This document shows positions 1,609-31,581 of a DNA stretch of 64,000 bases, one piece after another. Positions within the stretch are counted from its first letter, which is position 1, and each line of letters starts with the position of its first letter. The position numbers and the translations under genes were made by a program. The notes under the pieces are model-generated. The model ran no database searches. It was not told where the DNA came from and saw only the letters and a list, made by a program, of their open reading frames with translations. The DNA comes from Methanobacteriota archaeon (GTDB taxonomy: Archaea > Thermoplasmatota > Poseidoniia > Poseidoniales > Poseidoniaceae), in contig JAAZXA010000068.1 of the NCBI GenBank assembly GCA_014240385.1, forward strand, positions 29,090-93,089. The letters run 5' to 3'.

Positions 1609-1773
1609 TTAGACATCCCAACAAAGGGGCGTTCGGTTCTCCTTTGCAATTCTCCTGCAAGTTGCACAGGGGATTTTTCCCCCGTCTTTGACTATCTTTC
1701 GTTCCTTCTTGCTAAGATATGAAGTAAACGGTTTCTCTCTGTTGCATATTGAACAGTTGTACCATCGTGGCAT
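1609..1773 (-). CDS. zinc-ribbon protein (54 aa), below track cutoff
   Basis: PM-ATG at 1773; MPRWYNCSICNREKPF...CATCRRIAKENRTPLCWDV; two CxxC pairs; stop abuts next PM. Confidence 0.6.
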   Translation of the reverse strand: MPRWYNCSICNREKPFTSYLSKKERKIVKDGGKIPCATCRRIAKENRTPLCWDV

Positions 1774-2011
1774 GAGCGGTAATGATGGATCGACTTGTCA
1801 TGAAGGAGATCGCAGCGTTTAAGGGTTGCAGACTATCCGATTGTCATAGGCTTCTCGAATAGTCGAGAGCGAATCATCTTCTTGGCCCTCCTTTCCTTGA
1901 CTTAATATCCTGCATCTTACCCAGCTACTAATTACTGAGATTACTCGCTTTGGTGTCGTCCAAGGATTGGACACCTATTGCTTCAATCCGTTCATATTCG
2001 CTGTGAGCGGT
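1774..2011 (-). ncRNA. non-coding island A (candidate structured RNA or operon boundary)
   Basis: no ORF; opens with TGA-ACACCGCTCACAG (2003-2011), conserved hairpin at 1952-1975, closes with PM-ATG at 1773. Confidence 0.4.
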
Positions 2012-2013
2012 GT

Positions 2014-2382
2014 TCAGATGTAGTCATCTGAACCTTCTTCTCTGATGCCCCATCGACCAACTTCAATCTTAATTGAAGGTAGGTAATGTTCATGGCAATT
2101 CTGTATCTCGAATGCAAGCATTCCATCGGGTTCGGAATCATAAGCACCATATTTGCGCCAGACAGACAATAATGCTCGCATTTGTGTCTGTAGGCTCTTT
2201 GCAAGAAGTATTGCATTCTCTGTGTCGATATCATATCCCAAGTTGGTGGTTGCCTCGCTGTAGGTGTCCTTCGCCATGATGGTGAAAGATTCACTCAACA
2301 TTGCTCCTACTGTTTCACAATCCATGCTTGCAGTATACAGTTGCCATGTTTGGGCATCTAGTTTACACTTGTAGTGTTTCAT
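2014..2382 (-). CDS. hypothetical protein (122 aa)
   Basis: track ORF; PM-ATG at 2382. Confidence 0.75.
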   Translation of the reverse strand: MKHYKCKLDAQTWQLYTASMDCETVGAMLSESFTIMAKDTYSEATTNLGYDIDTENAILLAKSLQTQMRALLSVWRKYGAYDSEPDGMLAFEIQNCHEHYLPSIKIEVGRWGIREEGSDDYI

Positions 2383-2393
2383 GAGCGGTGTTG

Positions 2394-2900
2394 TTATGGT
2401 CCTTCCACATCAACTGTGTCGTTCCAAGTGCAACTGGTAATGTGGTCCCATTCAACTCTTTCAGCGTCTTCACCATCAACATTCCAGGTATGCTCCGTTA
2501 GAGCATTTCTGAAATCGTAGGATGCATACGATAGAGCGTTGTAAGCTTCTTCGGTAGCATCGCTGTTGGCTTTCACGCCTTTGGCGTTCGCATCTCCACT
2601 GCAGTACAGGCGACTTAACGCCCTGAATAGTAAGATTTCCAACGGTGATGGTGTCCAACTCATTGCTCGTTGGATCTCTTCTTCTATCTCTAACTCTGCT
2701 TCGTTGCGGCTGTGCGGTGAGCCTGTTTCGTTGTGGGCGACATGCAGTTGCCAGTCGTTGAGCGCCTCTAGCGCATCAGCGGGTCTATCTTTTTCTCCTA
2801 AGATGTCGCTTAATCTGTTCAAGGCCTCAGTCAAACTTGGAATCGTATGATTCGCAAGATGTTGTCCTGCCCTTGTGTTTAACCAATTTCTATTAGTCAT
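2394..2900 (-). CDS. hypothetical protein (168 aa)
   Basis: track ORF 2394..2957 trimmed to PM-ATG at 2900. Confidence 0.75.
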   Translation of the reverse strand: MTNRNWLNTRAGQHLANHTIPSLTEALNRLSDILGEKDRPADALEALNDWQLHVAHNETGSPHSRNEAELEIEEEIQRAMSWTPSPLEILLFRALSRLYCSGDANAKGVKANSDATEEAYNALSYASYDFRNALTEHTWNVDGEDAERVEWDHITSCTWNDTVDVEGP

Positions 2901-2908
2901 GAGCGGTT

Positions 2909-3856
2909 TCATGTGGGTCCATTGGATTCTCCGTATGCGCCACTTGGTAGAGTCCATCCTCCCCTGGAACGAATCAATTGTCTTTCTTCAATCCATGCCT
3001 CGACGAGGTATGTGACGCCTTCGTATGGTGTTCCTTTCTCTACCAATTCTCGGACACTCACGCCTTGCTTGATTGTAAAACCGAATTCTTCTTCGTATTT
3101 CGCAATCTTCTCCACCATTGCTGGATAGAGTTCGGCGGCTGATGCCCATTGATTCGCATTTCCGAATATGCAGGTAATGCATGACAGTCTGCCCCATCCT
3201 AGCCAGTATGCTGGATGAGCCATGATTCTGTGTTTTTCCATGATTTCCCACACTTGTTTTTCTGTCCAATCGTGAATTGGCCTCCAATGATGCACCGTTC
3301 TCAATTTTCCATGACAACGGTGATTCTCGAAGGTGTTGTAGTTGGATCGTGATTTGCTTTCTCCTGCTCTCTCACCAGTCACAACAAGGGTCTTCTTGCC
3401 CTTGAATCGTTCTTGGTTGTTGATTGCTGCGCTCATCACATCGATTTTCAAATAGGCACTGCACCATCTTACCCGCAGATCTGCGGAGACTTGTGGAAAC
3501 TTGCGCCTTGTACCATCAGGGCCTTTACCCCCTGATGAATCGATTGTTCCGTCTGGGTTCTCCCAGAACACCTTGCCTGTCGGGCTGTTATCTCGTAGCA
3601 TCTCTTGCTCGAATCCGCCATCTCTCCAACTGAAGTAGATGGGAACATTGAATTCCTTTGCGAATTCCCGACAGTAATCTTCTGTTATCGGCCAATCCAT
3701 GAATGGATCGCTTCCTGGCGCACCATCAATGAGATGGTGCCACAGTTCTATTTTCTCTTTGTCAACACCGTTGTCTAGCAGGTCAAGGAAACAAGCTGTT
3801 GAGTCCTTTCCTCCGCTAAAGGCAACGATGATGTAATCGTATTCATTTAGGTTCAT
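2909..3856 (-). CDS. PAPS reductase-family PP-loop ATPase
   Basis: PM-ATG; N-terminal PP-loop IIVAFSGGKDSTACFL; C-terminal Cys pair LSCITCIFG typical of the phage PAPS-reductase-like family. Confidence 0.75.
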   Translation of the reverse strand: MNLNEYDYIIVAFSGGKDSTACFLDLLDNGVDKEKIELWHHLIDGAPGSDPFMDWPITEDYCREFAKEFNVPIYFSWRDGGFEQEMLRDNSPTGKVFWENPDGTIDSSGGKGPDGTRRKFPQVSADLRVRWCSAYLKIDVMSAAINNQERFKGKKTLVVTGERAGESKSRSNYNTFENHRCHGKLRTVHHWRPIHDWTEKQVWEIMEKHRIMAHPAYWLGWGRLSCITCIFGNANQWASAAELYPAMVEKIAKYEEEFGFTIKQGVSVRELVEKGTPYEGVTYLVEAWIEERQLIRSRGGWTLPSGAYGESNGPT

Positions 3857-3892
3857 GAGCGGTTCATTCCGACAAGGGAATTTCCTTGTTGG

Positions 3893-4126
3893 TTATTGTA
3901 GTTGTGAAACTGTTGTTACTGCGCGTTCGCCTTTAATCACCTTCTGTAAAGCATGAAGGCTGATTACAAGGGGGATGTAGGTTTGCCCATCCCCTGTTGT
4001 GTATGTTTCACAGTTTCCCATTTCGTTTACATTGATGGAGATCTTGATTGCTCCACCTTGGTTGCTTCTTCGGGCGTAGCCCACTAGCCTAGCGGGTGCC
4101 GTATCATCTTTTTCTTCAATAGACAT
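3893..4126 (-). CDS. hypothetical protein (77 aa)
   Basis: track ORF 3893..4165 trimmed to PM-ATG at 4126. Confidence 0.7.
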   Translation of the reverse strand: MSIEEKDDTAPARLVGYARRSNQGGAIKISINVNEMGNCETYTTGDGQTYIPLVISLHALQKVIKGERAVTTVSQLQ

Positions 4127-4136
4127 GAGCGGTAAA

Positions 4137-4586
4137 TCACATTTCGAATTTAGTGATGCCATCATCTTCCGATAATCTCACTTTACGGCCAATCATTGTA
4201 GCCTGTTTTCGAAGTGCTTTGATTTTAGCGTGTTGTTCTAGCAGTCCTTCTCCATCTAGCATTGCTATGATTTGGAAGGCTTTTTTGTGCGAACGAATAC
4301 TATCCAGAATATCGTCAATCTTCGACAATAGTTCCCACATCTCGGGGCTTATCGTCATCTTGACTGCAGTTCTGTAATCGTCTGCACAGAATCCCTTTCC
4401 ATTAGTTTCTCTTCCTTTGACGAAGTGTCCGTGGCCGATGTGACCGGGGACTGGGAGTTTCGCAAAAATATTCTCTCTAAGGGTTGAGTCGTTTCTGCAT
4501 ATACAGAGGGGATTAGCCCTCATTCTCTCTCTCCCGCCAATACTCCAAGAAGCGGGGGAGAACTGTAGTGTAAATTCAGTTTTCAT
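4137..4586 (-). CDS. hypothetical protein (149 aa)
   Basis: track ORF; PM-ATG at 4586. Confidence 0.75.
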   Translation of the reverse strand: MKTEFTLQFSPASWSIGGRERMRANPLCICRNDSTLRENIFAKLPVPGHIGHGHFVKGRETNGKGFCADDYRTAVKMTISPEMWELLSKIDDILDSIRSHKKAFQIIAMLDGEGLLEQHAKIKALRKQATMIGRKVRLSEDDGITKFEM

Positions 4587-4597
4587 GAGCGGTCCCT

Positions 4598-4849
4598 TTA
4601 GGCTAGGGGATTTAATCCTTCTTTCCTGATTATTTCAGTCACTTGAAATTGGTGCCGGTGTTTGGTACAGGTTTCGTTAAGAAGGGGTTCCCAATGGGGT
4701 GCTAAAAGGGCGTTTTTGTTTCCTGGACATACTCCAGTATGTCCTTTGGTAATATTCTCTAATTCTTCCTCTGTTGCCCAGCCTTCTTCGGGCCAGGTGT
4801 GCTCTGCTTTACAGAACTTGCATCGGAAGATTGCTTTTATCTCTGCCAT
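4598..4849 (-). CDS. Cys-containing small protein (83 aa)
   Basis: track ORF; PM-ATG at 4849; CKFCKAEH...CPGN. Confidence 0.7.
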   Translation of the reverse strand: MAEIKAIFRCKFCKAEHTWPEEGWATEEELENITKGHTGVCPGNKNALLAPHWEPLLNETCTKHRHQFQVTEIIRKEGLNPLA

Positions 4850-4856
4850 GAGCGGT

Positions 4857-5087
4857 TCAATTTGTTACTTGCCAAATTGATTCTTTCCATCGTCGGCCTC
4901 TGTCGTAACATCTCTTTGTTTCGACCTTGACGAACTCTGGGTTCTTTCCCAAGACATTGTTCAATGTTTGGATTGAGGTTCCTTCTTTGGTATTCATATT
5001 GATGTGCTCAAGTATCTCATGTGTTGAGGCATTTCCTTTCTCTTGCACATACTCTATTGCCATTTTCTTGATTCTAATGGAGACCAT
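4857..5087 (-). CDS. putative winged-helix DNA-binding protein (76 aa)
   Basis: track ORF 4857..5156 trimmed to PM-ATG at 5087; wHTH call is pattern-level only. Confidence 0.6.
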   Translation of the reverse strand: MVSIRIKKMAIEYVQEKGNASTHEILEHINMNTKEGTSIQTLNNVLGKNPEFVKVETKRCYDRGRRWKESIWQVTN

Positions 5088-5095
5088 GAGCGGTT

Positions 5096-5251
5096 CTATT
5101 CGGGCTGTAGAATTTTGTATTGTAACAGGCCCACTTTCAGGAAGTGCCTGATACAATCTGATCTAGATAACCCGTGCGTATCTGCGATTTCATCAATTTG
5201 TTTCAATTGACCTTTGCTTATTCTGAGACTCACCATCCCTTTTGTTGTCAT
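5096..5251 (-). CDS. ribbon-helix-helix (CopG/Arc-like) protein (51 aa), below track cutoff
   Basis: PM-ATG at 5251; MTTKGMVSLRISKGQLKQIDEIADTHGLSRSDCIRHFLKVGL fits a strand-helix-helix pattern. Confidence 0.55.
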   Translation of the reverse strand: MTTKGMVSLRISKGQLKQIDEIADTHGLSRSDCIRHFLKVGLLQYKILQPE

Positions 5252-5260
5252 GAGCGGTGT

Positions 5261-5470
5261 TCAGGAAAAGTCTGCTCCGCAATTGTAGCATTGATCTATT
5301 CCTGTGTTTGCATGGTGGTCGCAACATTTCGGGCAGATTTCATTTTCTGCACAAGGGCAACCGTTCAAGATTCTTCGCATCTCTTTAATCCAGCAATTTA
5401 CCAAATAGCGTTGGGTTTCTGTAGTAAAGGTGTCGATGTTGTTTTCCATGTCTTCAAGTATTGTTTCCAT
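5261..5470 (-). CDS. Cys-rich zinc-finger protein (69 aa)
   Basis: track ORF 5261..5494 trimmed to PM-ATG at 5470; CPCAENEICPKCCDHH...CYNCG. Confidence 0.7.
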   Translation of the reverse strand: METILEDMENNIDTFTTETQRYLVNCWIKEMRRILNGCPCAENEICPKCCDHHANTGIDQCYNCGADFS

Positions 5471-5478
5471 GAGCGGTT

Positions 5479-6354
5479 TCAAACTGGAACCCATAGTTTC
5501 CTGCCATTAGATGAACAGGCTCGGACTAGAGAGGCTGCAGCACTTGGAGAATTGAAGGTCACATCTCGAGTAAATCGTAAATGTTTGCCGTCTTCAATTA
5601 TTGCTCCTTTTTCAAGGAGTTCTTTTCTCCATCTTTGCTCGCTTAACCTCCATGAGTCTCGGGGTTGCTTGTTTGCTGTAGATCCACGAAATACCACGAA
5701 CTTCTCGTTGCGGTATTGGCCTGTTGCTTCAACACCATTTGTTAGTGCAAGCTTCAGCATATCGTTGTCCCAGTATTCTTCTGATAGCCAGTTTCCCTTG
5801 TTATCCATGCATAGAACCTGCTTACCGCCGGCTCCTTCCCATGGACTGTTTGAAAATACGACTGATACTGACGGCCATCTTGACGCTCCGCCCTTAACAT
5901 GTGCAGGGCCGGTGAAGTCAAGTCTCCCTTTGAAGAAAACCAAATGCGAAGCATGAGGAAAAATCCAATTATGCCACATCAGGGTTTCACAGTTGGTAGG
6001 TCGGATTAGCAAGACGACGATTTCTGCATCGCCATTCTGCACAGAATCAAATGCCTTCTTTACGAACGGTTTGATTCCGTGGCTTGTTTTGCTGGAGTAT
6101 GGCGGGTTGCACCATACTATTCCTTCCCACTTCTGTTCTAGGGAGTCCATCTCAATATCGTAGTAATTCTCGCATAGGGCGTTTTCTTCGCTTGCAGCCG
6201 CATCCAATGTGAATGGGCCGAATCTGGCATTTAGAGAATCGAATATTGCTGTCGGAGTGCGCATGTCGTTTTCATCGCTATTCTTCTGCTTTCGATTCTT
6301 ATGCCAGGAGCGAACTTCCTCTGGCGTCATTTCAATTGATATCTTTTCAGACAT
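5479..6354 (-). CDS. DNA N6-adenine methyltransferase (phage Dam family) with extra C-terminal domain
   Basis: PM-ATG; FTLDAAASEENALCENYY...VWCNPPYS signature; C-terminal FNSPSAAASLVRACSSNGRKLW resembles a DUF4357-type domain (from memory). Confidence 0.8.
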   Translation of the reverse strand: MSEKISIEMTPEEVRSWHKNRKQKNSDENDMRTPTAIFDSLNARFGPFTLDAAASEENALCENYYDIEMDSLEQKWEGIVWCNPPYSSKTSHGIKPFVKKAFDSVQNGDAEIVVLLIRPTNCETLMWHNWIFPHASHLVFFKGRLDFTGPAHVKGGASRWPSVSVVFSNSPWEGAGGKQVLCMDNKGNWLSEEYWDNDMLKLALTNGVEATGQYRNEKFVVFRGSTANKQPRDSWRLSEQRWRKELLEKGAIIEDGKHLRFTRDVTFNSPSAAASLVRACSSNGRKLWVPV

Positions 6355-6361
6355 GAGCGGT

Positions 6362-6652
6362 TCAAGGAGGGGAAGGCCATGTTGGGCAATGTTCTCTCAA
6401 CATTGCTGCCAATATCTCAGTAGCCTCTGAAGCTACTTCTCGGCTAATCCCTCGTTCAGTCCATTGGTCGTAATTGCCTTCTAGATTTTCGTAGTCCAGA
6501 AGTTTCAAGCATTCGTATGCTGCAATTGCAACGCTTTGATCATATTTGCATGTACCCTGTAATCCACAGCATGGACAACAGACGCACATTCCTTCACCAC
6601 CATTCCATGTGGCTGCTCCGCAAGTGCAGGGGTATGTTTTCTTTTTTGTCAT
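6362..6652 (-). CDS. Cys-rich protein (96 aa)
   Basis: track ORF; PM-ATG at 6652; CTCG...CVCCPCCG. Confidence 0.7.
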   Translation of the reverse strand: MTKKKTYPCTCGAATWNGGEGMCVCCPCCGLQGTCKYDQSVAIAAYECLKLLDYENLEGNYDQWTERGISREVASEATEILAAMLREHCPTWPSPP

Positions 6653-6758
6653 GAGCGGTGTCCTCGATTATGAGGATGATTTCGGTTATTTCTCCGTTGT
6701 TGTCTCTCTTTACATCATGTGGTGTGCAAAGTCCGTATTTGGGGTGCATGTAATGCAT
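6594..6758 (-). CDS. possible small protein (54 aa) reading through the next PM
   Basis: PM-ATG at 6758; frame runs across the PM at 6650 out of frame and overlaps the next gene by 59 nt. Confidence 0.35.
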   Translation of the reverse strand: MHYMHPKYGLCTPHDVKRDNNGEITEIILIIEDTAHDKKENIPLHLRSSHMEWW

Positions 6759-6766
6759 GAGCGGTT

Positions 6767-7237
6767 TCATTCATCGAATGAAAGTTTGTCAAAACCGAAG
6801 TTCATCGTGTAGTAGTAACCATCATAAATCTCACCATATCCCTCGATGACAACTATGTCACCAATGGACATTGATGTGTGTCCGACTTCGTTTTCACTCA
6901 TCCAGTTCTGTCCGAATCTTGGATTATCTGGTTCGAGCGGTATTGCGTTGTCGAACTCGTCATAGCAGTTAATCCTGCCTTTGCCGTCCCAATTACGATA
7001 TTCTTCTGCAAGTGGGTTTGTTGCGTATGAGTTCATTCTTCGGAAGATGGCTTCAAGGGTGATTTTTGGTTCGTTATCCTGTGAAGGAACCAAGCACAAG
7101 CCGTCTTCCTCAAGGTTGAATACGACCCAACTGGGCAACTCAGCCCATTGTTCTTCGATTTCTTGCTTTGTTTGTAGTTTCCTGTCTCGGAACATAAATT
7201 CACAGTTCCTCTTTCCGTACAAGATCTTAATCTTCAT
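6767..7237 (-). CDS. hypothetical protein (156 aa)
   Basis: track ORF; PM-ATG at 7237. Confidence 0.75.
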   Translation of the reverse strand: MKIKILYGKRNCEFMFRDRKLQTKQEIEEQWAELPSWVVFNLEEDGLCLVPSQDNEPKITLEAIFRRMNSYATNPLAEEYRNWDGKGRINCYDEFDNAIPLEPDNPRFGQNWMSENEVGHTSMSIGDIVVIEGYGEIYDGYYYTMNFGFDKLSFDE

Positions 7238-7246
7238 GAGCGGTAT

Positions 7247-8152
7247 TCAGTCTCGGTAATTCGGGAACTTGTAGTACATAAGCCACCATGTTCCTCTAAT
7301 CTCATCGCCACAATTACTGCAGCATTGAGCCTTGCCGATACTTTTCTTCGTTTGTGTTCCGTAACAGTAATCGATTGGTTCTCCTGCTTCGCTACGGAAT
7401 AGTTTCTCGATAACTGACTTTGGAATATCATTTTCAGCCCATTTGAACACAAGTGTTCCATTGGTTTTCAATAATCTCCATAGTTCTCGGAATCCCTTAG
7501 CGAGGTTTTCTTGCCAATCATGTCCTAGATACCCATACTTCATTGTGATGAATCCTGTGCCTTTCTTTTTCACATGGGGTGGATCCCATACGATGTGATT
7601 GAAGGTCTCGTCATCAAATTGAGGTAAGTAGGTGAAGTCCCCCAGAATATCTGGTTTGCATTCCCATCCGGGTTGGGATGGTATAGGCACACCGTCTGGG
7701 TCTTTTCGAGGCATCATTACTCCTTGAGAGCCTTCGCCTTTGACTTCTATCCTTTGATCTAGGAACAATACATTCGGATTGTTTTTGTGGTTTTTGTGCC
7801 AAATCGACCTTGAACCTGCTGTTGCATCGAGGATCAATAATTCATTGGCAGTTGGTATAATGGTTGAGTTGATGGTGATTCTCCACCATCCTCTGTCTAA
7901 ACCATCTTTTTCCACATCTCCTTTTCCTTTCAAGGAACCAAGTGCTGTTCTTACTCGGTGTTTCCATTCGGGTTGATTAGTTCCACATGTGCAGCATTGG
8001 CTGCAGAGATAATCGTCATCGCATAGGTGAGGGAAAGAATCCTTCACATATTCGTAAATGACGGTTATTTTGTGGATTCCCTCTGGAACCACTTTCGTTA
8101 TTCCACCGTCCATTAGTTCCTTTTGCAATTTTCTGTGTTGCAATTGTTGCAT
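7247..8152 (-). CDS. DNA methyltransferase (N6-A/N4-C type) with Cys-rich N-terminal domain
   Basis: track ORF 7247..8209 trimmed to PM-ATG at 8152; motif I ILDATAGSRS and motif IV VWDPPH. Confidence 0.7.
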   Translation of the reverse strand: MQQLQHRKLQKELMDGGITKVVPEGIHKITVIYEYVKDSFPHLCDDDYLCSQCCTCGTNQPEWKHRVRTALGSLKGKGDVEKDGLDRGWWRITINSTIIPTANELLILDATAGSRSIWHKNHKNNPNVLFLDQRIEVKGEGSQGVMMPRKDPDGVPIPSQPGWECKPDILGDFTYLPQFDDETFNHIVWDPPHVKKKGTGFITMKYGYLGHDWQENLAKGFRELWRLLKTNGTLVFKWAENDIPKSVIEKLFRSEAGEPIDYCYGTQTKKSIGKAQCCSNCGDEIRGTWWLMYYKFPNYRD

Positions 8153-8162
8153 GAGCGGTTCC

Positions 8163-9002: not shown

Positions 9003-9008
9003 GAGCGG

Positions 9009-9107
9009 TCAAATGATTTTTCCACATTTCTGACAAGACTGGGGGTGAACCCCTGAATGTCTAGGACATGGGTTTTCGCAAATACAATCTTCTGATTCAT
9101 CAGTCAT
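9009..9107 (-). CDS. Cys-rich micro-protein (32 aa)
   Basis: PM-ATG at 9107; MTDESEDCICENPCPRHSGVHPQSCQKCGKII; stop TGA directly precedes the next PM. Confidence 0.5.
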   Translation of the reverse strand: MTDESEDCICENPCPRHSGVHPQSCQKCGKII

Positions 9108-9376: not shown

Positions 9377-9384
9377 GAGCGGTC

Positions 9385-24494: not shown

Positions 24495-24705
24495 GAGCGG
24501 TACAGTATCTTTCCCCCGGTTGCGCAGGACATATTTCCAATTCAACCGTGTCGGTATCAAATCTGTGTTCTCTGCCACAATGTCCACATTCCAAACGCCA
24601 GTCTACATCGTAGATTTCAGCTCCCAGTATTCTTGGGTGTTTGATTTTGGATAATGGCACCCATATTGTAGGAAGTCTTGCTTGCAGGATATCTAATTTG
24701 TCCAT
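24415..24705 (-). CDS. zinc-ribbon protein (96 aa) reading through the next PM
   Basis: track ORF; PM-ATG at 24705; CGHCGREH; overlaps the next gene by 80 nt. Confidence 0.6.
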   Translation of the reverse strand: MDKLDILQARLPTIWVPLSKIKHPRILGAEIYDVDWRLECGHCGREHRFDTDTVELEICPAQPGERYCTAHDSRLGNNPKITCRITRSIGRETGRK

Positions 24706-24717
24706 GAGCGGTGCGTG

Positions 24718-25596
24718 TTAAACGCGTCTTTTGATAGCCTCATTAACTGACTTCAACCTTTCAAGGAAAGTGTCGAGGTTTTCGATTGTGTCGTCAAATT
24801 CGTTCACAATCTCGATAATTTTCCTCTCCATCTTTTTCTCCTTTACGAAGATGCTTACCATTTCAGGGGGGTCTTCACTTTGCTGGACTTGTGCTGGCAC
24901 AGGTCCTGTGGATTTCTTTCCCTTTTCTTTGCGGTGTTCAGTAAACGGTTCTATTCCGTCTTCATCTACCCAAATGGTTTCCTTCTCGGTATGCAGGATA
25001 TCCGTTTCAATGAGTCCTTCGTACATCGGCTTTTCATCGTCGTATTCTTCGATTAACTCATTTTGTAGTTCGGATTCTAATACATCCACGAAGTTTGAAT
25101 CTAATTCACGAACTTCTGTGGTTTCTTCGGTTTCCTCTGCATCTGGAACGGGTTCGGAGCAATCGAAATTACTTGAGATGTAGTCTAGCATTGCTTGTTT
25201 GGGGTCTTTCCCCTCAGCAATTGCTTTTCCTGCTACATCGAAAATATTCTCTGAATTCTCTAGTACCTGTTCGTTGTCCTTGACCCATTCCAATGCCAAT
25301 ACTTCTTGCATTAATTCTACAATGTCGGCTGGAGGGTCTTCGGGCTCTTCGGTAGTAGGTTCCTCTTCGGTTTCAGTCTCAACCTTGACTTTTGGTTCTG
25401 AAAACTTGGCTGTAAGGTAGGACGCCATTTCAAATCTCCTCTTCTGGGATGAATCGATGTCGTTAAACTGTCCTCCATCGATTGCATTGTTGAGGTAATC
25501 TTCGGCGGCTACCATGTGCCGGTCTCTCCACCCTTCGTCTGTTAGGTCGGTTAATTTGTTTATCACATAGTTCATATCATCTATGATCTCTTGCAT
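24718..25596 (-). CDS. hypothetical highly acidic protein (292 aa)
   Basis: track ORF; PM-ATG at 25596. Confidence 0.75.
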   Translation of the reverse strand: MQEIIDDMNYVINKLTDLTDEGWRDRHMVAAEDYLNNAIDGGQFNDIDSSQKRRFEMASYLTAKFSEPKVKVETETEEEPTTEEPEDPPADIVELMQEVLALEWVKDNEQVLENSENIFDVAGKAIAEGKDPKQAMLDYISSNFDCSEPVPDAEETEETTEVRELDSNFVDVLESELQNELIEEYDDEKPMYEGLIETDILHTEKETIWVDEDGIEPFTEHRKEKGKKSTGPVPAQVQQSEDPPEMVSIFVKEKKMERKIIEIVNEFDDTIENLDTFLERLKSVNEAIKRRV

Positions 25597-25606
25597 GAGC
25601 GGTTCA

Positions 25607-25813
25607 TTATTCCATTATCCTCACGAAACTTCCGAATGGTTTGCGGCATTTAGCGTGAATCCAAAGGTTCTTGGTGATGCTCAATTGGCTTCCGGGCTTA
25701 TTCTTCATTGAAATTGCCCTTTCTCCTTTTGTCATCAATTCTCCACACCATACGCAAATTTGTTGTTCTGTTTGTGAGGTTCTCCATACAATTCTGTCGT
25801 GTATTTGGGTCAT
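25607..25813 (-). CDS. zinc-finger protein (68 aa)
   Basis: track ORF 25607..25879 trimmed to PM-ATG at 25813; CVWCGE...HAKC. Confidence 0.65.
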   Translation of the reverse strand: MTQIHDRIVWRTSQTEQQICVWCGELMTKGERAISMKNKPGSQLSITKNLWIHAKCRKPFGSFVRIME

Positions 25814-25823
25814 GAGCGGTTGT

Positions 25824-26096
25824 CTATGGCAATGGTGCAACCATTTGAGCCATAGGTGGGCTTGGCGGAACAATCTCAATTAATCCTTCAATGCCTGTTG
25901 CAAGGGCTAAGAGGACCTTTCGGTGGATGGTTAAGCGGTGGATTAATTCGTCCAATACATCTGCGCCTTCCAACTCTGCTATGTTTTCCGCCAGACCATT
26001 AGTTGGATTCCACCTGTCTTGGTGCTTTTCCATTAGGTCTGCTTCGTATTTCACTAGGTCAATTCCTAGTAATTCGTGTTGATATTCTTCTAACAT
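25824..26096 (-). CDS. hypothetical protein (90 aa)
   Basis: track ORF; PM-ATG at 26096. Confidence 0.7.
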   Translation of the reverse strand: MLEEYQHELLGIDLVKYEADLMEKHQDRWNPTNGLAENIAELEGADVLDELIHRLTIHRKVLLALATGIEGLIEIVPPSPPMAQMVAPLP

Positions 26097-26340
26097 GAGC
26101 GGTTCTTTTCATTCCAGCGGGGGATGTTTCGTCACCTTGAACTTGAGCCGACCCCCATCACTTGATTCTTGCCTACAAGCAGTGGGGAGGTATCTTTCAG
26201 TGGTGGGCGAGTATCGAGCCCCTTGTTTCAAAGAACCCGGTTATATCATTGGTTGTCTCCTTTCGAGTTTCTTCGGTGTCGTCCAAGGATTGGACACCTA
26301 CTTTCTCTACTTTGGACTGCAATAAGTCCCCGTGAGCGGT
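26097..26340 (-). ncRNA. non-coding island C
   Basis: opens with TGA-ATACCGCTCACGG (26332-26340), conserved hairpin at 26275-26298, closes with PM-ATG at 26096. Confidence 0.4.
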
Positions 26341-26342
26341 AT

Positions 26343-26711
26343 TCACAAATCTCTGTCCAGCAGTAAGGACCTTAATTCACTCCAACAGTCTTGGATTGCT
26401 CCAGGGTCGGTATGTCCTTCAATTGGCCTTACTTCTGCTAAGATTGTGCTGATTAGGTCTCTTACTCGTTCATAATCTACAGTTTTGATTTCATTGTATG
26501 CATCGGCAATCTCATTTTGAATCGACTCATCGATAAACGATGATGTTGCGTCCATAGCGAGCGTTTGCAATATTATCTCTGCTGCTGATTCGGGTAAAAT
26601 CCAAATCGTTTTGGCGTGTCTTTTGCCGAGGTCGATGTAATCGACTCCTTCCTCTAGTTCATCTAGTCTTTTGGCAAATTCTTTTCCATCTACAAGATCT
26701 TCTCTTGGCAT
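26343..26711 (-). CDS. hypothetical protein (122 aa)
   Basis: track ORF 26343..26750 trimmed to PM-ATG at 26711 (CATGAGCGGA). Confidence 0.7.
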   Translation of the reverse strand: MPREDLVDGKEFAKRLDELEEGVDYIDLGKRHAKTIWILPESAAEIILQTLAMDATSSFIDESIQNEIADAYNEIKTVDYERVRDLISTILAEVRPIEGHTDPGAIQDCWSELRSLLLDRDL

Positions 26712-26753
26712 GAGCGGATTACACAAGTTAGGTGTTTCAAACTGGGGCATCGT

Positions 26754-27338
26754 TCATCCTCCACGGATGCACTCCAGTTCGCACCTTTCCCATGCTTTCT
26801 CTGAGATTCCGAGTTCCATAGCCTTCTTTCGGCTCTTTTCCTCATCCATCTCCCATTCATCTTCGTTGTGCCATACGATGTAATCTGACATGTTTCCGTC
26901 TTCTACTTCTTCTCCGTTTACCCACCAACCCCAGAAATCCATGCCGGCTTCCATAAAGGAAGCATCGACTTCGAATCCGTTGTTGTATAGGTGTTCATAG
27001 ATTGGGAAGGTAGGACTCCATGCTGAATCAAATCTGATTTCCAGTATGTTTTCGTCTGGGTCTAAATGGCAATGAGTCCGTCCGTAGTTGTTTTCGTCAA
27101 CTTCTGCGGGTATGGCCCATTTGGTTCCCCAATTGTTCACATTCCAATTTCTCCACCAAGTCGGGTCGCTATGAAGCTCCTGCTGTGATGTTTCATATTC
27201 ATCACGGTAAGCAGGTGTGTCCGGCGGTGGGATTAGGAATTGGAACAATCCAGTTTCCTTTGTTGCTTTTTCTATTTCAATTAATTTCTGTCTATCATCG
27301 TGTTTGATGATGACATGGTTGTTTGTCCAATTAGGCAT
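26754..27338 (-). CDS. DUF1281/Api92-like protein (194 aa)
   Basis: PM-ATG; MPNWTNNHVII...NWGTKWA pattern recalled from the MPNW...WGTKW plasmid/phage family (from memory). Confidence 0.55.
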   Translation of the reverse strand: MPNWTNNHVIIKHDDRQKLIEIEKATKETGLFQFLIPPPDTPAYRDEYETSQQELHSDPTWWRNWNVNNWGTKWAIPAEVDENNYGRTHCHLDPDENILEIRFDSAWSPTFPIYEHLYNNGFEVDASFMEAGMDFWGWWVNGEEVEDGNMSDYIVWHNEDEWEMDEEKSRKKAMELGISEKAWERCELECIRGG

Positions 27339-27346
27339 GAGCGGTT

Positions 27347-27799
27347 CTAAATGATGAGTTCTGCAATTTTGATAATTTCATGTTGTAAATCAACTTGATT
27401 GTTGATTTCCAAGACTTCTTCCTCGTGAATTATTCGGTCAGTCTTTGCTTTGAGGGCTTGAAGGGATTGGTCTGCTAAAACCAAACCAATCTTCAAAGCC
27501 TCAACTTCTGGGAATCCATATTCCTTCAAGTAGCCTGTAATCCAAACGACACTTCGGTTGAGGTCGTGATTTAGAGAATTGCAATAAACCATATCTGAGT
27601 ATTGTTCTAGGGATAGGTTCAAAGCTTCTCTTTTTGACAGACAGACATCTTTCATGATGAGTTCACCATCAATTATGTCATCTTCCTCTGTGTGCATGAT
27701 TTTCTCATTCCAGTAATCTTGGTAGTTTTCTTCGCCTTTTTCGTGTAAGCCGATCCAAGCGCCATACCATTCATCGATTTCTCCGGTTTCGTTTTCCAT
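27347..27799 (-). CDS. hypothetical protein (150 aa)
   Basis: track ORF; PM-ATG at 27799. Confidence 0.75.
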   Translation of the reverse strand: MENETGEIDEWYGAWIGLHEKGEENYQDYWNEKIMHTEEDDIIDGELIMKDVCLSKREALNLSLEQYSDMVYCNSLNHDLNRSVVWITGYLKEYGFPEVEALKIGLVLADQSLQALKAKTDRIIHEEEVLEINNQVDLQHEIIKIAELII

Positions 27800-27843
27800 G
27801 AGCGGTGTATTTGGATCAGTTATTCTAGATCTTCGGTTGGTTC
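27797..27843 (-). repeat. 47-nt gene-junction repeat, copy 2
   Basis: CATGAGCGGTGTATTTGGATCAGTTATTCTAGATCTTCGGTTGGTTC; covers the stop region in a different reading frame from copy 1. Confidence 0.85.
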
Positions 27844-28146
27844 GATTTCTACGATGTAGATTTCGATGCCTTTGGCCTCCAACCAGTCTAATGTGTCGTC
27901 AAAACTCCGATGGTCTTGTTTGAACTCTTCTGTCAAATCAACCATCATGCCTTGCATACATTCATGTGCAATTGCATCAGAGTTGAACGACCAATCCATA
28001 TCTCTCCAACCCATTCCGAATCCAGAACCACCATCGGTCATGTATTCGTCATATTTGTTGGCTATCTCATCCATTCGTTTGCTACGGTTGCTGAAAGTCT
28101 CGATGTTTCCATCGTCCTTCCATCTGAGCATTACTCTGTATTCCAT
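27820..28146 (-). CDS. hypothetical protein (108 aa)
   Basis: track ORF; PM-ATG at 28146. Confidence 0.75.
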   Translation of the reverse strand: MEYRVMLRWKDDGNIETFSNRSKRMDEIANKYDEYMTDGGSGFGMGWRDMDWSFNSDAIAHECMQGMMVDLTEEFKQDHRSFDDTLDWLEAKGIEIYIVEIEPTEDLE

Positions 28147-28155
28147 GAGCGGTTT

Positions 28156-28443
28156 TTAGAACTCGTTTGTAGTTCCTGTTTTGAGTAATGTGATGATTAT
28201 CCGATTAACGGCAATCATCCTATTTGTAATCGCCTTATCGTCAAAATTCTCAAAGTAAGCCATGAGCATTTCATAGTGAGGCATGTTCCATTGATGTGTC
28301 GGTAAAATAAGTTTTTCAACTGCTTCTACATCTGTTGGTTTCAAATTGTCTGATTGTCTGAGGATAGTTGAAGGGAGTTGTCCTGTTTGGTCGTTGAAAC
28401 CCCATGTTGCTTCTAACATCTTTCTAATCCATTTATCTTCCAT
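28156..28443 (-). CDS. hypothetical protein (95 aa)
   Basis: track ORF; PM-ATG at 28443. Confidence 0.7.
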   Translation of the reverse strand: MEDKWIRKMLEATWGFNDQTGQLPSTILRQSDNLKPTDVEAVEKLILPTHQWNMPHYEMLMAYFENFDDKAITNRMIAVNRIIITLLKTGTTNEF

Positions 28444-28449
28444 GAGCGG

Positions 28450-28515
28450 TTAATCCTCTTCGTATTCTTCGAAGATGTATTCTTCTGTTTCAATGCGTAA
28501 TATCAATGTCGGCAT
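28450..28515 (-). CDS. acidic micro-protein (21 aa)
   Basis: PM-ATG at 28515 (CATGAGCGGC); MPTLILRIETEEYIFEEYEED; stop TAA abuts the next PM. Confidence 0.4.
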   Translation of the reverse strand: MPTLILRIETEEYIFEEYEED

Positions 28516-28530
28516 GAGCGGCTCAAACCA

Positions 28531-28797
28531 TCAAGATGGTTTGTAGCAGTTTGATTCGTTTGTTGTTATTCTGATTGTTGAATCTGATATTGACTCGAGC
28601 AATACATCTCCATCATCCTTGACCTTAATTACTATGCAGAAATCTCCGGGCTCGATTATCTCGTCCTCGCTATTTGTTTCTGCAGCATAAAGGCTCACGA
28701 AGTCTCCGACTTCGAAGTTGTTTTGTGAAGTTGTGTAGTTCTGTTCGTATGCGTCTTCAATCAGTTTCTTTAACCGGGTTGCTACTCTTCTTCCCAT
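28531..28797 (-). CDS. hypothetical protein (88 aa)
   Basis: track ORF; PM-ATG at 28797. Confidence 0.7.
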   Translation of the reverse strand: MGRRVATRLKKLIEDAYEQNYTTSQNNFEVGDFVSLYAAETNSEDEIIEPGDFCIVIKVKDDGDVLLESISDSTIRITTNESNCYKPS

Positions 28798-28806
28798 GAG
28801 CGGTGT

Positions 28807-29073
28807 TCATTCTTCTTCAAGATCATCCCAGTGGATAAAATCTCTTTTCATTGTCCTTCTTTTGAATTTAGGGGTGTTTTCTACAAATGGGTCGGGTATT
28901 GTATTTGTCTCTTCTGGTTTGCCAAAAATATAGGCGAACCAGAAATACATCAATATCCCCATAAGAATTATCGTATAGGGGTCTTGCAGCCATTCGTAGA
29001 TGAGTGCGCATAGCAATCCTGTGCAAATTGCTGCTAGTGCGTTTCTTACATTCAATTCAATGTATTGTTCCAT
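28807..29073 (-). CDS. membrane protein (88 aa, 2 TM)
   Basis: track ORF; PM-ATG at 29073; AAICTGLLCALIY and IILMGILMYFWFAYIF. Confidence 0.7.
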   Translation of the reverse strand: MEQYIELNVRNALAAICTGLLCALIYEWLQDPYTIILMGILMYFWFAYIFGKPEETNTIPDPFVENTPKFKRRTMKRDFIHWDDLEEE

Positions 29074-29378
29074 GAGCGGTTTGTACCGGCATACTCTTGC
29101 TTAGACTGTTCGCTGGACAGTTGGCCTGTGAATCTAACTGCAACACTCCGTCTTCCCGTTTCTGTCTCCGTAGATACAATTGAGGGAAGCTGCGGGTTTG
29201 TCAATTGACTCGATGGCATCGTGGCCGAAGCCGCAGGATGCCCTAAGCAGTATCTTACCGTAGGTACTTACCCGACTCGCCAATTAGGGGTCACACCATC
29301 CATGACTGTTGGTGCCGTCCAAGGATTGGACACCGTAAGCGTATTGGTTCTGCCCCGGTTAGGTCTGTCGTGAGCGGT
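29074..29378 (-). ncRNA. non-coding island D
   Basis: opens with TAA-ACCGCTCACGA (29370-29378), conserved hairpin at 29311-29334, closes with PM-ATG at 29073. Confidence 0.4.
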
Positions 29379-29585
29379 TTAATCATTTCTAACAAGGTTG
29401 TAGACATATTCGAATAAATCTCTTCCTTGTTCTGTGAAGCCAGATGGATCATCGTCGTTTTCAACGATGTTTCCTTCTGCATCTAGGTTGTATAGTAACT
29501 TGCGTTCAATAAGTCCTTCATCAATTAAATATTCGATTACTGAATCTCCTGCATCGCAAGCTTCTCCTATGTTGTTTTCTTCCAT
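29379..29585 (-). CDS. hypothetical acidic protein (68 aa)
   Basis: track ORF; PM-ATG at 29585. Confidence 0.7.
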   Translation of the reverse strand: MEENNIGEACDAGDSVIEYLIDEGLIERKLLYNLDAEGNIVENDDDPSGFTEQGRDLFEYVYNLVRND

Positions 29586-29592
29586 GAGCGGT

Positions 29593-30459
29593 TTATGTCC
29601 AAAGACTCCTCGTCATCCTCCATATCCCTGCTTTTGCGAAGTCAGGGTGTTTTTCTATCCCTACTGCGTGTCGCCCTGTGAGCATCGCAGCCAATCCTAG
29701 GCTGTATGATCCTGCAAACGGGTCGAGCACTACATCTCCAGGATAAGTGGAGAAGCGAATAAGTTCAATCAAGAGTTCAACAGGCTTTTCTGTCTGGTGA
29801 ACCTTCTTCCTACCCATCATTCTAGAGTGGGTTTGAACATCTGCTATGCTGTTATTGATTCTTCTGCGCTTCCCTTTCGAGAAGAACAGAATTAGTTCGT
29901 GTCGTGGCCGACCATTGTAGCCAAGTGATATGACTTTCTTATCCCATACCCATTGGCTATTGAATGTGAAACCTGCGGCTTCTGCAATCTTGATTTGATT
30001 GTAGATGTAGTCGTAGGTGTCGTGCTTTGCTGCAGGCATGAAGCAAAAGAAGTGTCCATTGGGCTTCAAGACCCTAAGCATCTCCGAATACAAATCCGAA
30101 TCGATGTCTTTGGTCTCAAAATCCCATCCCTTCTTGAGATTCCTTGCTCGGGTAGTTCCCGTCTGCATTTGAGCATTCAAGATTGAATACGGAGGATCTG
30201 TGATGATAGCATCGAAGCTGTTATCTTCTAACTTTGCTAATTCATCCCAACTGTCTCCTTCAATCAAAGCGCATTGTGTGTCGCCAACTGTGGCGATGTA
30301 TATGCCTCTTGATACTCTGCGAAAGCACTTGTCTATGTTTTCATTGAGTCTTCCACGAATTGTTGTTTCCTTTTCATCAGGCAATGCTTCGTATATCTCC
30401 TTGAGATTCGATTCATTGTCTGCTAGAAATTCAACCAATCTTTCTTTCAATGTTTTCAT
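29593..30459 (-). CDS. DNA methyltransferase (beta-class N4-C/N6-A, DPPY) with N-terminal wHTH
   Basis: track ORF 29593..30480 trimmed to PM-ATG at 30459; IITDPPYS then C-terminal VVLDPFAGSYS. Confidence 0.8.
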   Translation of the reverse strand: MKTLKERLVEFLADNESNLKEIYEALPDEKETTIRGRLNENIDKCFRRVSRGIYIATVGDTQCALIEGDSWDELAKLEDNSFDAIITDPPYSILNAQMQTGTTRARNLKKGWDFETKDIDSDLYSEMLRVLKPNGHFFCFMPAAKHDTYDYIYNQIKIAEAAGFTFNSQWVWDKKVISLGYNGRPRHELILFFSKGKRRRINNSIADVQTHSRMMGRKKVHQTEKPVELLIELIRFSTYPGDVVLDPFAGSYSLGLAAMLTGRHAVGIEKHPDFAKAGIWRMTRSLWT

Positions 30460-30480
30460 GAGCGGTTCAGTTTGGGTCAA

Positions 30481-30774
30481 CTAATCTTCAGTTTGATGAG
30501 ACCAGTTTTCGGGTTGTTTGAGCCAAAGTCCAAAAAGCACCTGGGCTCCGTAGTAGGTTCCGAAAGTTTCCAAATCCGATTCCTCGTAGCCGTCTTTTGA
30601 TTCGTGAATGACATAGAACAATTGTTCCATGGTTAGATCTTCTGGTATTTTCCATTCATCTCCGTAATCGTCATTACATTCCAACAAATCGTCGTTTGCG
30701 ATTTTATCTGAGGGTGCTTCCTTAACGATTCCCGATATTGGGTTCCAGAAAGTTCCTGATATTGTTTTAGTCAT
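30481..30774 (-). CDS. hypothetical protein (97 aa)
   Basis: track ORF; PM-ATG at 30774. Confidence 0.7.
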   Translation of the reverse strand: MTKTISGTFWNPISGIVKEAPSDKIANDDLLECNDDYGDEWKIPEDLTMEQLFYVIHESKDGYEESDLETFGTYYGAQVLFGLWLKQPENWSHQTED

Positions 30775-30783
30775 GAGCGGTGT

Positions 30784-30858
30784 TCAAATTTCGTGACAAC
30801 AAGCCATGCACTTGTTTCTGCACATGGCGTATAGTCTGCATACTCTGCATTGTTCCAT
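30784..30858 (-). CDS. Cys-rich micro-protein (24 aa)
   Basis: PM-ATG at 30858; MEQCRVCRLYAMCRNKCMACCHEI; stop TGA followed by the next PM. Confidence 0.45.
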   Translation of the reverse strand: MEQCRVCRLYAMCRNKCMACCHEI

Positions 30859-30865
30859 GAGCGGT

Positions 30866-31207
30866 TTATTCACCATGATGCCATTTGAGAGCCTTTTCAT
30901 CCCAAGGCCCCCAATGCAGGTGATTTAGTACATTCTCAATTACTTCTTCATAGGTGTATTCAATAATCTCATCGGGATTGATTTTTCCTCGTCTGAAGTA
31001 AATCTCCCATGCCATCTTCACCATTCCATTTGGCCCCGATGGGTCAAAAACCCATTCGGTTAGCCATTCATCTGTGAATCTGACAAAGGCGTGGCCGTAT
31101 CGAATTCCTTCGATTTCTCCCTCGCCTGTTACTTCGGCGTGGACTAATCGGTATTCTGGATTCTCTTGAGCCAATTGAGCTGCTAATCGATAGCATTCTC
31201 CTTTCAT
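30866..31207 (-). CDS. hypothetical protein (113 aa)
   Basis: track ORF; PM-ATG at 31207. Confidence 0.75.
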   Translation of the reverse strand: MKGECYRLAAQLAQENPEYRLVHAEVTGEGEIEGIRYGHAFVRFTDEWLTEWVFDPSGPNGMVKMAWEIYFRRGKINPDEIIEYTYEEVIENVLNHLHWGPWDEKALKWHHGE

Positions 31208-31214
31208 GAGCGGT

Positions 31215-31502
31215 TCAGAATGGAAGATCTAATGCAATCTGCTTTGCGTGTTCTGGTGCATGTTTCGCTATTACTTCCCAAAATGGGCTTTCTGTAATTG
31301 CGTCTTTGCCTCCCGTATCACTCCAAGTTGGAGGAAGGGTTGTTTGGTTTCCATTCTTGTCGAGAAGCCATGCTTGAATGAAATAACTTGTTTCGCCTGT
31401 TATTCCCCCACGGTCAAATCCGTAGGCGAGGTTCCAGTTTTGCTGTTCTTCTATGTTTTTCAATACATTCAGGTTCTCTGCATATCCTAGATATCTAGTC
31501 AT
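31215..31502 (-). CDS. hypothetical protein (95 aa)
   Basis: track ORF 31215..31571 trimmed to PM-ATG at 31502. Confidence 0.7.
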   Translation of the reverse strand: MTRYLGYAENLNVLKNIEEQQNWNLAYGFDRGGITGETSYFIQAWLLDKNGNQTTLPPTWSDTGGKDAITESPFWEVIAKHAPEHAKQIALDLPF

Positions 31503-31509
31503 GAGCGGT

Positions 31510-31581
31510 TCATTGGTTCGGGCATTTGCCGCATCCATTGTCTGGACAATCGTTGCATGTCCTTGCTTCATCTTCTTCCAT
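31510..31581 (-). CDS. Cys-rich micro-protein (23 aa)
   Basis: PM-ATG at 31581; MEEDEARTCNDCPDNGCGKCPNQ; stop TGA abuts the next PM. Confidence 0.45.
   Translation of the reverse strand: MEEDEARTCNDCPDNGCGKCPNQ

Follow-up and report, generated by a model that had tools for sequence, protein, structure and literature searches.

Leaderless mRNAs are common in archaea, actinobacteria and Deinococcus-Thermus and in their phages (phiYS40, P23-45), and the genes behind them usually carry a -10 or TATA element at a set upstream distance. Among RNA viruses, the transcription-regulating sequences (TRS) of nidoviruses and the gene-start/gene-end signals of mononegaviruses place a virus-specific word before each gene, which is read at the level of the polymerase by the virus's own machinery. 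The mobile promoter/stem-loop (PeSL) cassettes of T4-type hyperplastic early regions, credited to Arbiol and colleagues in 2010, reportedly combine a promoter and a hairpin over tens of bases, with a Shine-Dalgarno (SD) sequence for each gene. The nearest described feature to the element examined here is the start-associated sequence (SAS) of Cluster K mycobacteriophages, a 13-bp repeat (GGGATAGGAGCCC) with an AGGAG SD core that lies 3-7 bp upstream of non-structural gene starts, prefers ATG and is present in 11-19 copies per genome but not in the host; a phage or host RNA or protein has been proposed as its reader (Pope et al., 2011; PMC3203893). Here, we examine a 64,000-nucleotide stretch of DNA (the window; positions 29,090 to 93,089 of contig JAAZXA010000068.1, GenBank assembly GCA_014240385.1), which is half of an uncultivated tailed double-stranded DNA virus of ~128 kb. 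A 39-kb block on its minus strand holds ~90 small, mostly orphan genes, essentially every one of which begins with the same word, A-CCGCTC-ATG, referred to below as the start word or the motif. A first-pass annotation had proposed that this word exposes a set of micro-open reading frames (micro-ORFs) missed by an ORF track with a 60-residue cut-off, and that these encode real mini zinc-binding peptides.

The start word is read on the minus strand, its plus-strand reading being CATGAGCGGT. The string CCGCTCATG occurs 88 times in the window, with 87 copies on the minus strand where shuffled sequence predicts 0.36. Nine bases are invariant over these 87 copies, position -1 is an A in 82, and conservation upstream beyond -7 is zero, so that the genes of the block have no SD sequence. 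The ATG of the word is the start codon in every one of the 87 copies, each opening a frame. The stops of the block ORFs (TGA 49, TAA 26, TAG 11; n = 86) mostly fall 0-5 nt before the next word; stop and following AUG are 6-12 nt apart, and neighboring genes ~8 nt. Genes that follow non-coding stretches of 230-950 nt are also headed by the start word, and termination-reinitiation alone is therefore insufficient to explain it. Pairing with the host anti-SD sequence was considered and excluded, given the zero spacing to the ATG, the lack of complementarity and the lineage-specific words described below. A scan of 24-43 kb for sigma-70-like promoters gave 23 matches against 28.5 expected, hence no enrichment, and no promoter-like element is common to the intergenic module ends. 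The sole plus-strand copy of CCGCTCATG (56404-56412), with C at -1 and inside the minus-strand ORF 55972..56559, is probably due to chance; no antisense RNA and no further antisense copy of the motif were found within the window. In the literature searched, neither motif strings nor concept queries led to a description of this word; they gave primer noise and unrelated papers.

The word is placed as an SAS would be: 87 of 88 copies lie on one strand, all at the starts of ATG-initiated ORFs and confined to the small-gene block, with the structural-type and SD-led genes located outside it. Both are short asymmetric repeats in a single orientation at the starts of non-structural genes, and both go with a preference for ATG. 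Unlike the SAS, the word upstream of the ATG is 7 nt long, abuts the start codon directly, contains no purine-rich or SD core, precedes essentially every block gene (87 in 39 kb), also heads non-coding modules, and differs in sequence between related viruses. The block resembles T4-type early regions in its one-strand runs of small, mostly orphan genes and in modules shuffled at short conserved junctions, but its junction of 10 nt contains the start codon and comes with neither an SD nor a sigma-70-like promoter. Integron cassette arrays likewise have one orientation, tightly packed small orphan ORFs, a short boundary core, and gain or loss cassette by cassette. In contrast to integrons, the block lacks attC inverted repeats (7-10 nt are all that is conserved), and its core includes the start codon; a scan of the window proteins, which was not exhaustive, found no tyrosine integrase (IntI-type), only a serine recombinase (57564..58385). 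With leaderless genes, the block genes share the absence of an SD, the strict use of AUG and a purine (A) at the would-be +1 position, whereas nothing is conserved upstream of -7 and the genes are ~8 nt apart. The junction signals of RNA viruses offer an analogy only, that of a 6-10-nt virus-specific word repeated before every gene, since the virus described here has a DNA genome, bacterial-type terminators and SD-led late genes. Some of its traits recur in PeSL cassettes, integrons and leaderless genes, yet each of these systems fails at least one defining feature.

Relatives of the virus were found by protein-based searches and by scanning public collections for pairs of motif copies spaced 60-90 nt. 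Among the motif-pair matches listed, L005, L155 and L209 are true relatives, while the others are mostly chance matches or tandem repeats. The relatives comprise a 127.5-kb IMG/VR contig (L005/L252/L261) together with L209, L155, L259, L260, L251, L253, L254/L263, L262 and L258; near-identical strain contigs (L255-257 and L264-276, 92-100% identity) came from exact-protein look-ups. Protein identity between the relatives and the window is 41-70%, and 45-70% for relatives whose heptamer differs; the architecture of the block is unchanged. The heptamer is A-CCGCTC in the window, L252, L209, L155, L259 and L260, N-YCGCTC in L251, A-CTGACC in L253 and L254, A-CTGAAC in L262, and M-CTACCC in L258. 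In all of these lineages, it abuts the ATG and never lies on the opposite strand, giving the general form A-C-Y-R-M-Y-C-ATG. The five heptamer lineages are represented by IMGVR_UViG_3300020446_000001, 3300017746_000001, 3300028196_000013, 3300031588_000005 and Ga0133547_10138469. Because the heptamer changes while its position, its strand and the architecture of the block stay the same, these variants point to a reader that co-evolves with the heptamer. Very short proteins are conserved between relatives as well. A 27-aa micro-ORF shared by L252 (5747-5830) and L155 (3676-3759), with the pattern MTPTF[ED][IL][KR]I.NSNDE..MPYIGEFIGE, has 78% amino acid identity and a ratio of non-synonymous to synonymous rates (dN/dS) of ~0.25 in genomes of different GC content, and is bounded by the motif in both. 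The relatives also share a conserved pair of 43 aa and have two-CxxC ORFs of the classical kind (41-45 aa).

A second class of copies has the heptamer followed by AC instead of ATG, so that the next base is an A in both classes. Nine AC-type copies lie on the minus strand of the window (first C at 2010, 11388, 11779, 26339, 29377, 32725, 35423, 41269 and 43821), each placed immediately behind the stop codon that closes a run of genes. The modules they head measure 230-390 nt, or ~2.2-2.5 kb at 41269 and 43821, and contain no motif-headed gene; within those at 35423 and 11779, an ORF starts at an internal ATG. A conserved 24-nt hairpin element, GGTGTCCAATCCTTGGACGRCACC, follows the copies at 2010, 11388, 26339 and 29377 at a distance of 32-43 nt (minus strand, at 1975, 11356, 26298 and 29334) and is limited to the window lineage and its strain variants. 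At 32725, an intrinsic terminator (32708..32681) begins 17 nt after the AC-type motif. The AC class also occurs in L252, L261, L259 and L260, which are relatives of the CCGCTC type. Strain contigs that are 92-98% identical to the window (L255 compared with 26.7-34.6 kb, L264 with 0.1-5.1 kb, L267 with 3.6-11.0 kb and L272 with 13.1-15.9 kb) differ from it by insertions, deletions and replacements of whole genes, with breakpoints inside the 10-nt motif. Among the genes that strains carry and the window lacks are one for a methylase of 395 aa and another of 147 aa, as well as a Cys-rich ORF (53 aa) and a basic ORF (24 aa, MGLLSNLKERARIALLLARKRHKK).

All eight micro-ORFs that had been proposed are present, with the sequences quoted for them (Table 1). 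The accompanying claim, that each frame closes shortly before the next motif, holds for seven, which end 0-3 nt before it; 6594..6758 runs into the motif with its frame still open, and a tandem pair of motifs counted as a ninth case does not follow the rule. Shuffling the interiors gives each interval a chance of 0.003-0.035 of being fitted this closely. Under a stricter null, which takes the stop as given and requires an open frame in one phase of three, the chance is 0.013-0.093, and these values multiply to 4e-10 over the seven intervals. This behavior is not peculiar to the window. Among 403 non-redundant motif intervals from the window and 12 related loci, 381 have an ATG after the core, and these are filled in 10 of 12 cases at up to 110 nt, 31 of 36 at 111-200 nt, 147 of 173 at 201-400 nt and 123 of 160 above that length. 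The motif-ATG rule holds alike for short and long intervals across the family. None of the eight micro-ORF sequences is present in a collection of 15 billion proteins, and they are therefore unannotated. One motif-headed ORF below 60 aa had been overlooked, 10423..10593, which does occur in the protein collection, has homologues in L252/L261 (59% over 39 aa, E 1e-14) and L260, and shows two synonymous differences in L267.

Table 1. Features of the window, in window coordinates.
Feature	Position	Strand	Details
Start-word array	150..39077	-	87 exact CCGCTCATG copies; ~90 small genes on one strand, no SD
Orphan ORF, 54 aa	1609..1773	-	C7xxC10, C36xxC39; next motif 1 nt away
AC-headed non-coding module (example)	1780..2011	-	A-CCGCTC-AC at 2010
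Putative RHH (CopG-like) repressor-type ORF, 51 aa	5096..5251	-	next motif 2 nt away
ORF, 54 aa	6594..6758	-	core ~33 aa (6660..6758); reads through motif 6650..6659 as T-A-H
Cys/His-rich ORF, 32 aa	9009..9107	-	C-x-C-x3-C-x2-H-x3-H-x3-C-x2-C; next motif 0 nt away
Motif-headed ORF, 56 aa	10423..10593	-	missed by 60-aa track
ORF, 24 aa, MVWCLICEEEYDDEGYPTCDCAYE	13932..14006	-	4 Cys; next motif 2 nt away
Cys-rich protein, 310 aa	18544..19476	-	CX3CX2C (CAGRCSGC); tail CVTTCGVCPNQCG / ...CGVCPNQCGTE
Tandem motif pair, 44 nt apart	19714..19767	-	copies at 19758 and 19714; second starts 74-aa WGR gene 19492..19716
Acidic ORF, 21 aa, MPTLILRIETEEYIFEEYEED	28450..28515	-	no Cys; own motif has G at -1; next motif 0 nt away
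ORF, 24 aa, MEQCRVCRLYAMCRNKCMACCHEI	30784..30858	-	6 Cys, 1 His; next motif 3 nt away
ORF, 23 aa, MEEDEARTCNDCPDNGCGKCPNQ	31510..31581	-	two CxxC pairs; next motif 1 nt away

Most of the micro-ORFs are very likely real genes, as had been argued, and for four of them (9009..9107, the core of 6594..6758, 5096..5251 and 1609..1773) this is well supported by homology or purifying selection, which the overlooked 10423..10593 shows as well. The 32-aa ORF 9009..9107 has a motif-bounded counterpart of 33 aa in L251 (11399..11500), to which it is 76% identical over 29 aa while the nucleotides are 63.5% identical. The proportion of differing sites between the two is 0.26 at non-synonymous (pN) and 0.78 at synonymous positions (pS; synonymous sites saturated), and all five Cys and both His are kept. 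The same ORF is identical in strain contigs L267-L270 and is weakly related to a 41-aa ORF of L258 and to window ORF 5261..5470. The core of 6594..6758 belongs to a family of 30-35 aa that spans three viruses, whose other members (30 aa, L209 4107; 35 aa, L261 7397) both end in ...ILxxED, a stop and the motif. In strain L267, the core differs by one synonymous change, one non-synonymous change and an in-frame 3-nt deletion and has another tail (TAHV, then a stop), and the core alone has a codon log-likelihood ratio (LLR) of +10. The full ORF runs on to overlap gene 6362..6652 by ~60 nt.

For 5096..5251, the ribbon-helix-helix (RHH) pattern noted previously is matched by PHROG 4738 'transcriptional repressor' (E 4.2e-6, residues 4-46) and by the CopG-like phrog_7325, while Pfam RHH_1 (E 5.5e-4, 20.2 bits) falls just under its cut-off of 20.5; the PDB gave no sequence match. 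Its one difference from L267 is synonymous, and it may be read as a small RHH repressor. The 54-aa ORF 1609..1773 does contain the two CxxC pairs ascribed to it, and its three differences from strain L264 are all synonymous changes at third positions. Its matches to the zinc-ribbon parts of Elf1, HNH and Lar-like models are below threshold, the best in Pfam being Zn_ribbon_Elf1 (E 0.012, 16 bits against a cut-off of 29.8), with PHROG matches at E 0.003-0.08. An exhaustive HMMER search of 1.84 billion representatives found no homologue, and AlphaFold run on the single sequence gave a weak model (pLDDT 65, pTM 0.41). As a side observation, ORFs of the family that lack a stop before the motif (6594-6758 and 1416-1601 in the window, 3933-5120 in L255) read it as ACC GCT CAT (Thr-Ala-His). 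These read-through ORFs overlap the next gene, and their tails vary between strains.

For the four smallest ORFs (21-24 aa), the support is indirect and consists of the family-wide filling rule, Cys enrichment and codon statistics. All four are intact and nucleotide-identical in every strain contig seen, and because there are no substitutions, this identity is uninformative on selection. The 24-aa ORF 13932..14006 is unchanged in L271, L272 and L275, while the gene upstream is 7% diverged in L272; no distant homologue of it was found. Likewise, 30784..30858 is identical in L255-L257, though the modules on both sides of it differ in L255, 31510..31581 is identical in L255 and L256, and 28450..28515 is identical in L255. 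The last of these is also weakly similar to a 33-aa motif ORF of L253 (...EYIFE..., E 0.008 in a small database). Codon LLR values are +7.6 for 13932, +8.7 for 28450, +11.2 for the full 6594 ORF and +12.0 for 10423; they are neutral for 9009 and 30784 (-1.3 for the latter), the measure being unreliable on Cys-rich sequence.

Cys content sets several of these peptides apart from the rest of the block. The ORFs of up to 35 aa contain 19 Cys in 124 residues, or 15.3% against 1.8% for the block (~8-fold; pooled P ~1e-11), with individual P values from 1e-5 to 2e-3, including 1e-5 for at least six Cys in 30784..30858 and 0.002 for at least four in 13932..14006. These Cys are arranged in CxxC or CxC pairs. 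The description of the set as mostly Cys-rich is borne out by five of the eight, with one RHH-type and two acidic peptides making up the remainder. Two ligand pairs, as in a zinc ribbon or knuckle, are found in 1609, 9009 (C8xC10, C14, H17, H21, C25xxC28), 13932 (C4xxC7 and C19xC21), 30784 (C4xxC7 and C17xxC20, two more Cys and a His) and 31510 (C9xxC12 and C17xxC20), and are lacking in 5096, 6594 and 28450. It is reasonable to infer, from the spacing of Cys only, that the first five bind zinc, and each may hold a metal ion at the center of a mini zinc knuckle or ribbon. The 28450 ORF and the 6594 core appear to be short acidic peptides, as does the 27-aa family described above, which is found in relatives only and is unrelated to either. 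Small phage zinc-ribbon or knuckle proteins and RHH (CopG/Arc-type) repressors provide a parallel, given lengths of 30-60 aa, the CxxC pairs of five micro-ORFs and the RHH match of 5096. Typical zinc ribbons are longer than the three Cys-rich ORFs of 21-24 aa, which could form single knuckle-type sites at most. A statement that at least a dozen larger zinc-ribbon proteins lie in the same block proved overstated: 15 are reached by a loose count of Cys and CxxC with the micro-ORFs included, and ~7 motif ORFs of at least 54 aa have at least two CxxC pairs, none of them above the Pfam threshold.

Taken as a whole, the reading we favor, and consider probable, is that the block is built of modules joined by the word, within which the micro-ORFs are independently initiated, ordinary genes of 21-56 codons with SD-independent starts. 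The modules would be gene units joined by the invariant A-CCGCTC-ATG, with its ATG serving as the start codon. The heptamer, standing in place of an SD, would then direct SD-independent initiation on the adjacent AUG through a factor specific to the virus lineage. The likeliest route would be by way of leaderless or near-leaderless mRNAs, produced either by transcription starting at CTC/A or by RNA cleavage at that point. The same word would act as the junction for module exchange between genomes, whether through microhomology or as a recognition site. A unit-boundary word read by a virus-specific factor seems to be the most economical reading of these features. A further-reaching proposal, to which we give a tentative place and which we regard as doubtful, is that the word is a private 'gene-start code' for the whole early or accessory gene set, with a virus-encoded reader, leaderless messages and the word as crossover point. 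Here, a polymerase, a guide RNA or an endonuclease that cuts RNA at specific sequences would act as the reader, its specificity having co-evolved with the heptamer (CCGCTC, CTGACC, CTGAAC, CTACCC), and transcripts would be cut into leaderless messages from which peptides as short as 21 residues could be translated efficiently.

Several observations weigh against modules of word-started genes as just described. No candidate for the trans-acting factor was identified. AC-type copies that stand before terminator-like hairpins fit a module boundary better than a pure signal for the start of translation or transcription. The tandem pair is real, yet its first copy heads no plausible gene: the copy at 19758 (C at -1) opens a 77-codon frame that crosses the WGR gene out of phase with an LLR of -9.4, whereas the WGR gene itself scores +21.5 (Pfam WGR, E 2.7e-18); the region forms no stable RNA fold. 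The four ORFs of 21-24 aa are without substitutions in the strain contigs that carry them (L255-257, L271, L272, L275) and without diverged homologues. No curated zinc-ribbon model scores above threshold for any micro-ORF, and Pfam returns nothing for 9009, 13932, 30784 or 31510. In L255, the ORF of the 395-aa methylase, inserted upstream, has no stop and crosses the 30784 ORF in another frame. The last seven codons of 31510..31581 match the CGVCPNQ tail of the 310-aa gene 18544..19476 at 18 of 21 nt (the last 13 exactly); the end of the 23-aa ORF probably derives from this gene or is paralogous to it. Given the shared tail, the 23-aa ORF may be either a fragment or a domesticated mini-domain. 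In public annotation of a near-identical contig, the gene downstream of 31510 is called at 118 aa, running through the motif. Truncated read-through remnants are also present in the block, such as 1416..1601, which corresponds to 101 aa in L264.

Remnants of this kind raise the question of whether some or all of the four smallest ORFs are themselves decaying, in-frame leftovers of module deletion or recombination at the motif, with the motif-ATG retained at the front and the former stop at the end. Modules turn over frequently at the motif, a second truncation (29 aa) is seen in L274, the tandem copy at 19758 heads nothing credible, and the four ORFs offer neither distant homologues nor informative substitutions. 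However, random scars would be in frame about one-third of the time, yet 10 of the 12 shortest intervals are filled exactly. Three of the four ORFs are strongly enriched in Cys with paired spacing, and codon statistics favor coding for 13932 and 28450. None of the four is disrupted in any strain contig seen, and distant relatives share conserved micro-ORFs of comparable size (27, 30-35 and 33 aa). We consider the remnant explanation unlikely on this evidence.

The micro-ORFs could also be translated merely as coupling or leader ORFs for the next gene, with a peptide sequence that is irrelevant. The stop-to-AUG distances of 6-12 nt across the block suit termination-reinitiation, as does the absence of an SD before any block gene. 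Yet the amino acids of 9009 are conserved while its synonymous sites are saturated, Cys enrichment serves no purpose in coupling, 5096 is a recognizable RHH-type protein, and the genes that lie behind 230-950 nt of non-coding sequence use the motif as well, so that translation from upstream is not needed; we hold this explanation to be very improbable. Smaller still is the chance we allow to the short stretches between motifs being non-coding, as structured RNAs or protein-binding spacers in which the open frames are incidental. Non-coding modules headed by ACCGCTC-AC do exist, but they have no ATG at the heptamer, whereas the micro intervals all have one. Folding of six micro intervals gave structures no better than those of shuffles (z -0.7 to +0.8), for which reason the structured-RNA version is rejected, and the exact fit of the frames, the Cys bias and the homologues all point to coding.

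The setting of the block fits a large virus with no cultured relative. A public contig of 128,049 bp carries an identical copy of one window protein, and the virus is present in samples ERZ23491082, ERZ23487621, ERZ23488322, ERZ23487860 and SRR28395889. A megablast of 1-25000 against 50,697 phage records gave no match, and tblastn with the 423-aa and 951-aa proteins gave matches of 20-26% identity or none; the absence of nucleotide matches, with remote protein matches only, indicates that no cultured relative exists. Exact-sequence look-up of neighboring proteins of 60 aa and 95 aa found nothing on record. The block encodes Dam and N6/N4 methylases, two PAPS-reductase-like proteins, a WGR protein and the RHH-type protein, and the right part of the window encodes glycosyltransferases, the serine recombinase, two tRNAs and the 951-aa protein, which has PHROG virion-structural matches. 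The host is probably a bacterium, as intrinsic terminators of bacterial type with U-tracts lie inside the block (37488..37463 and 32708..32681), which favors a bacterium over an archaeal host. Genes without the motif (42-64 kb) have GGAGG, GAGG or GGTGA 5-10 nt upstream, and some start with GTG or TTG. Set against the SD-less, ATG-only genes inside the block, these SD-led genes indicate two start-signal regimes within one virus.

Other features of the window stand apart from the start word. The 310-aa protein 18544..19476 is conserved in L252/L261 and L260 and matches no Pfam or PHROG family significantly; its Cys motif is reminiscent of radical-SAM enzymes. The GC skew is reversed in a plus-strand island (42486-53449), which encodes glycosyltransferases of the GT4 and GT2 types along with proteins that give weak Pfam matches to a TFIIB repeat (E 2.6e-4, below the cut-off) and the Arf family (E 1.6e-5); a TFIIB reading of 42486..43694 was dropped, as a PDB sequence search gave it no support. 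At 41038-41168 (minus strand), an Rfam tRNA match of 48.9 bits, not called by ARAGORN, has an anticodon loop of 64 nt instead of 7 (an insert of ~57 nt) and could be an intron-containing tRNA or a tRNA-like RNA. Near the upstream end of the block, a repeat of ~49 nt (ccgaaaaaaatcCCGCTCcgcctattagaggtcggcaatggagccatga) occurs at 37763 and 40370 on the minus strand, 2.6 kb apart.

Standard gene callers and length cut-offs miss genes of this kind, and one micro-ORF has been absorbed into a wrongly extended neighbor. An invariant start word provides an independent, sequence-level marker of true starts, by which viral proteins of 21-56 aa can be listed with some confidence, and proteins this small, once marked by the word, allow one to ask what role they play in host take-over. 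The lineage-specific start and junction word is a more unusual result than the micro-ORFs and may matter more: it has no SD, abuts the AUG, differs between lineages, bounds mobile modules, and exists beside SD-led genes in the same virus. Should a virus-encoded factor prove to be its reader, the word would represent a new way to separate viral early translation from that of the host, as well as a compact and portable expression signal.

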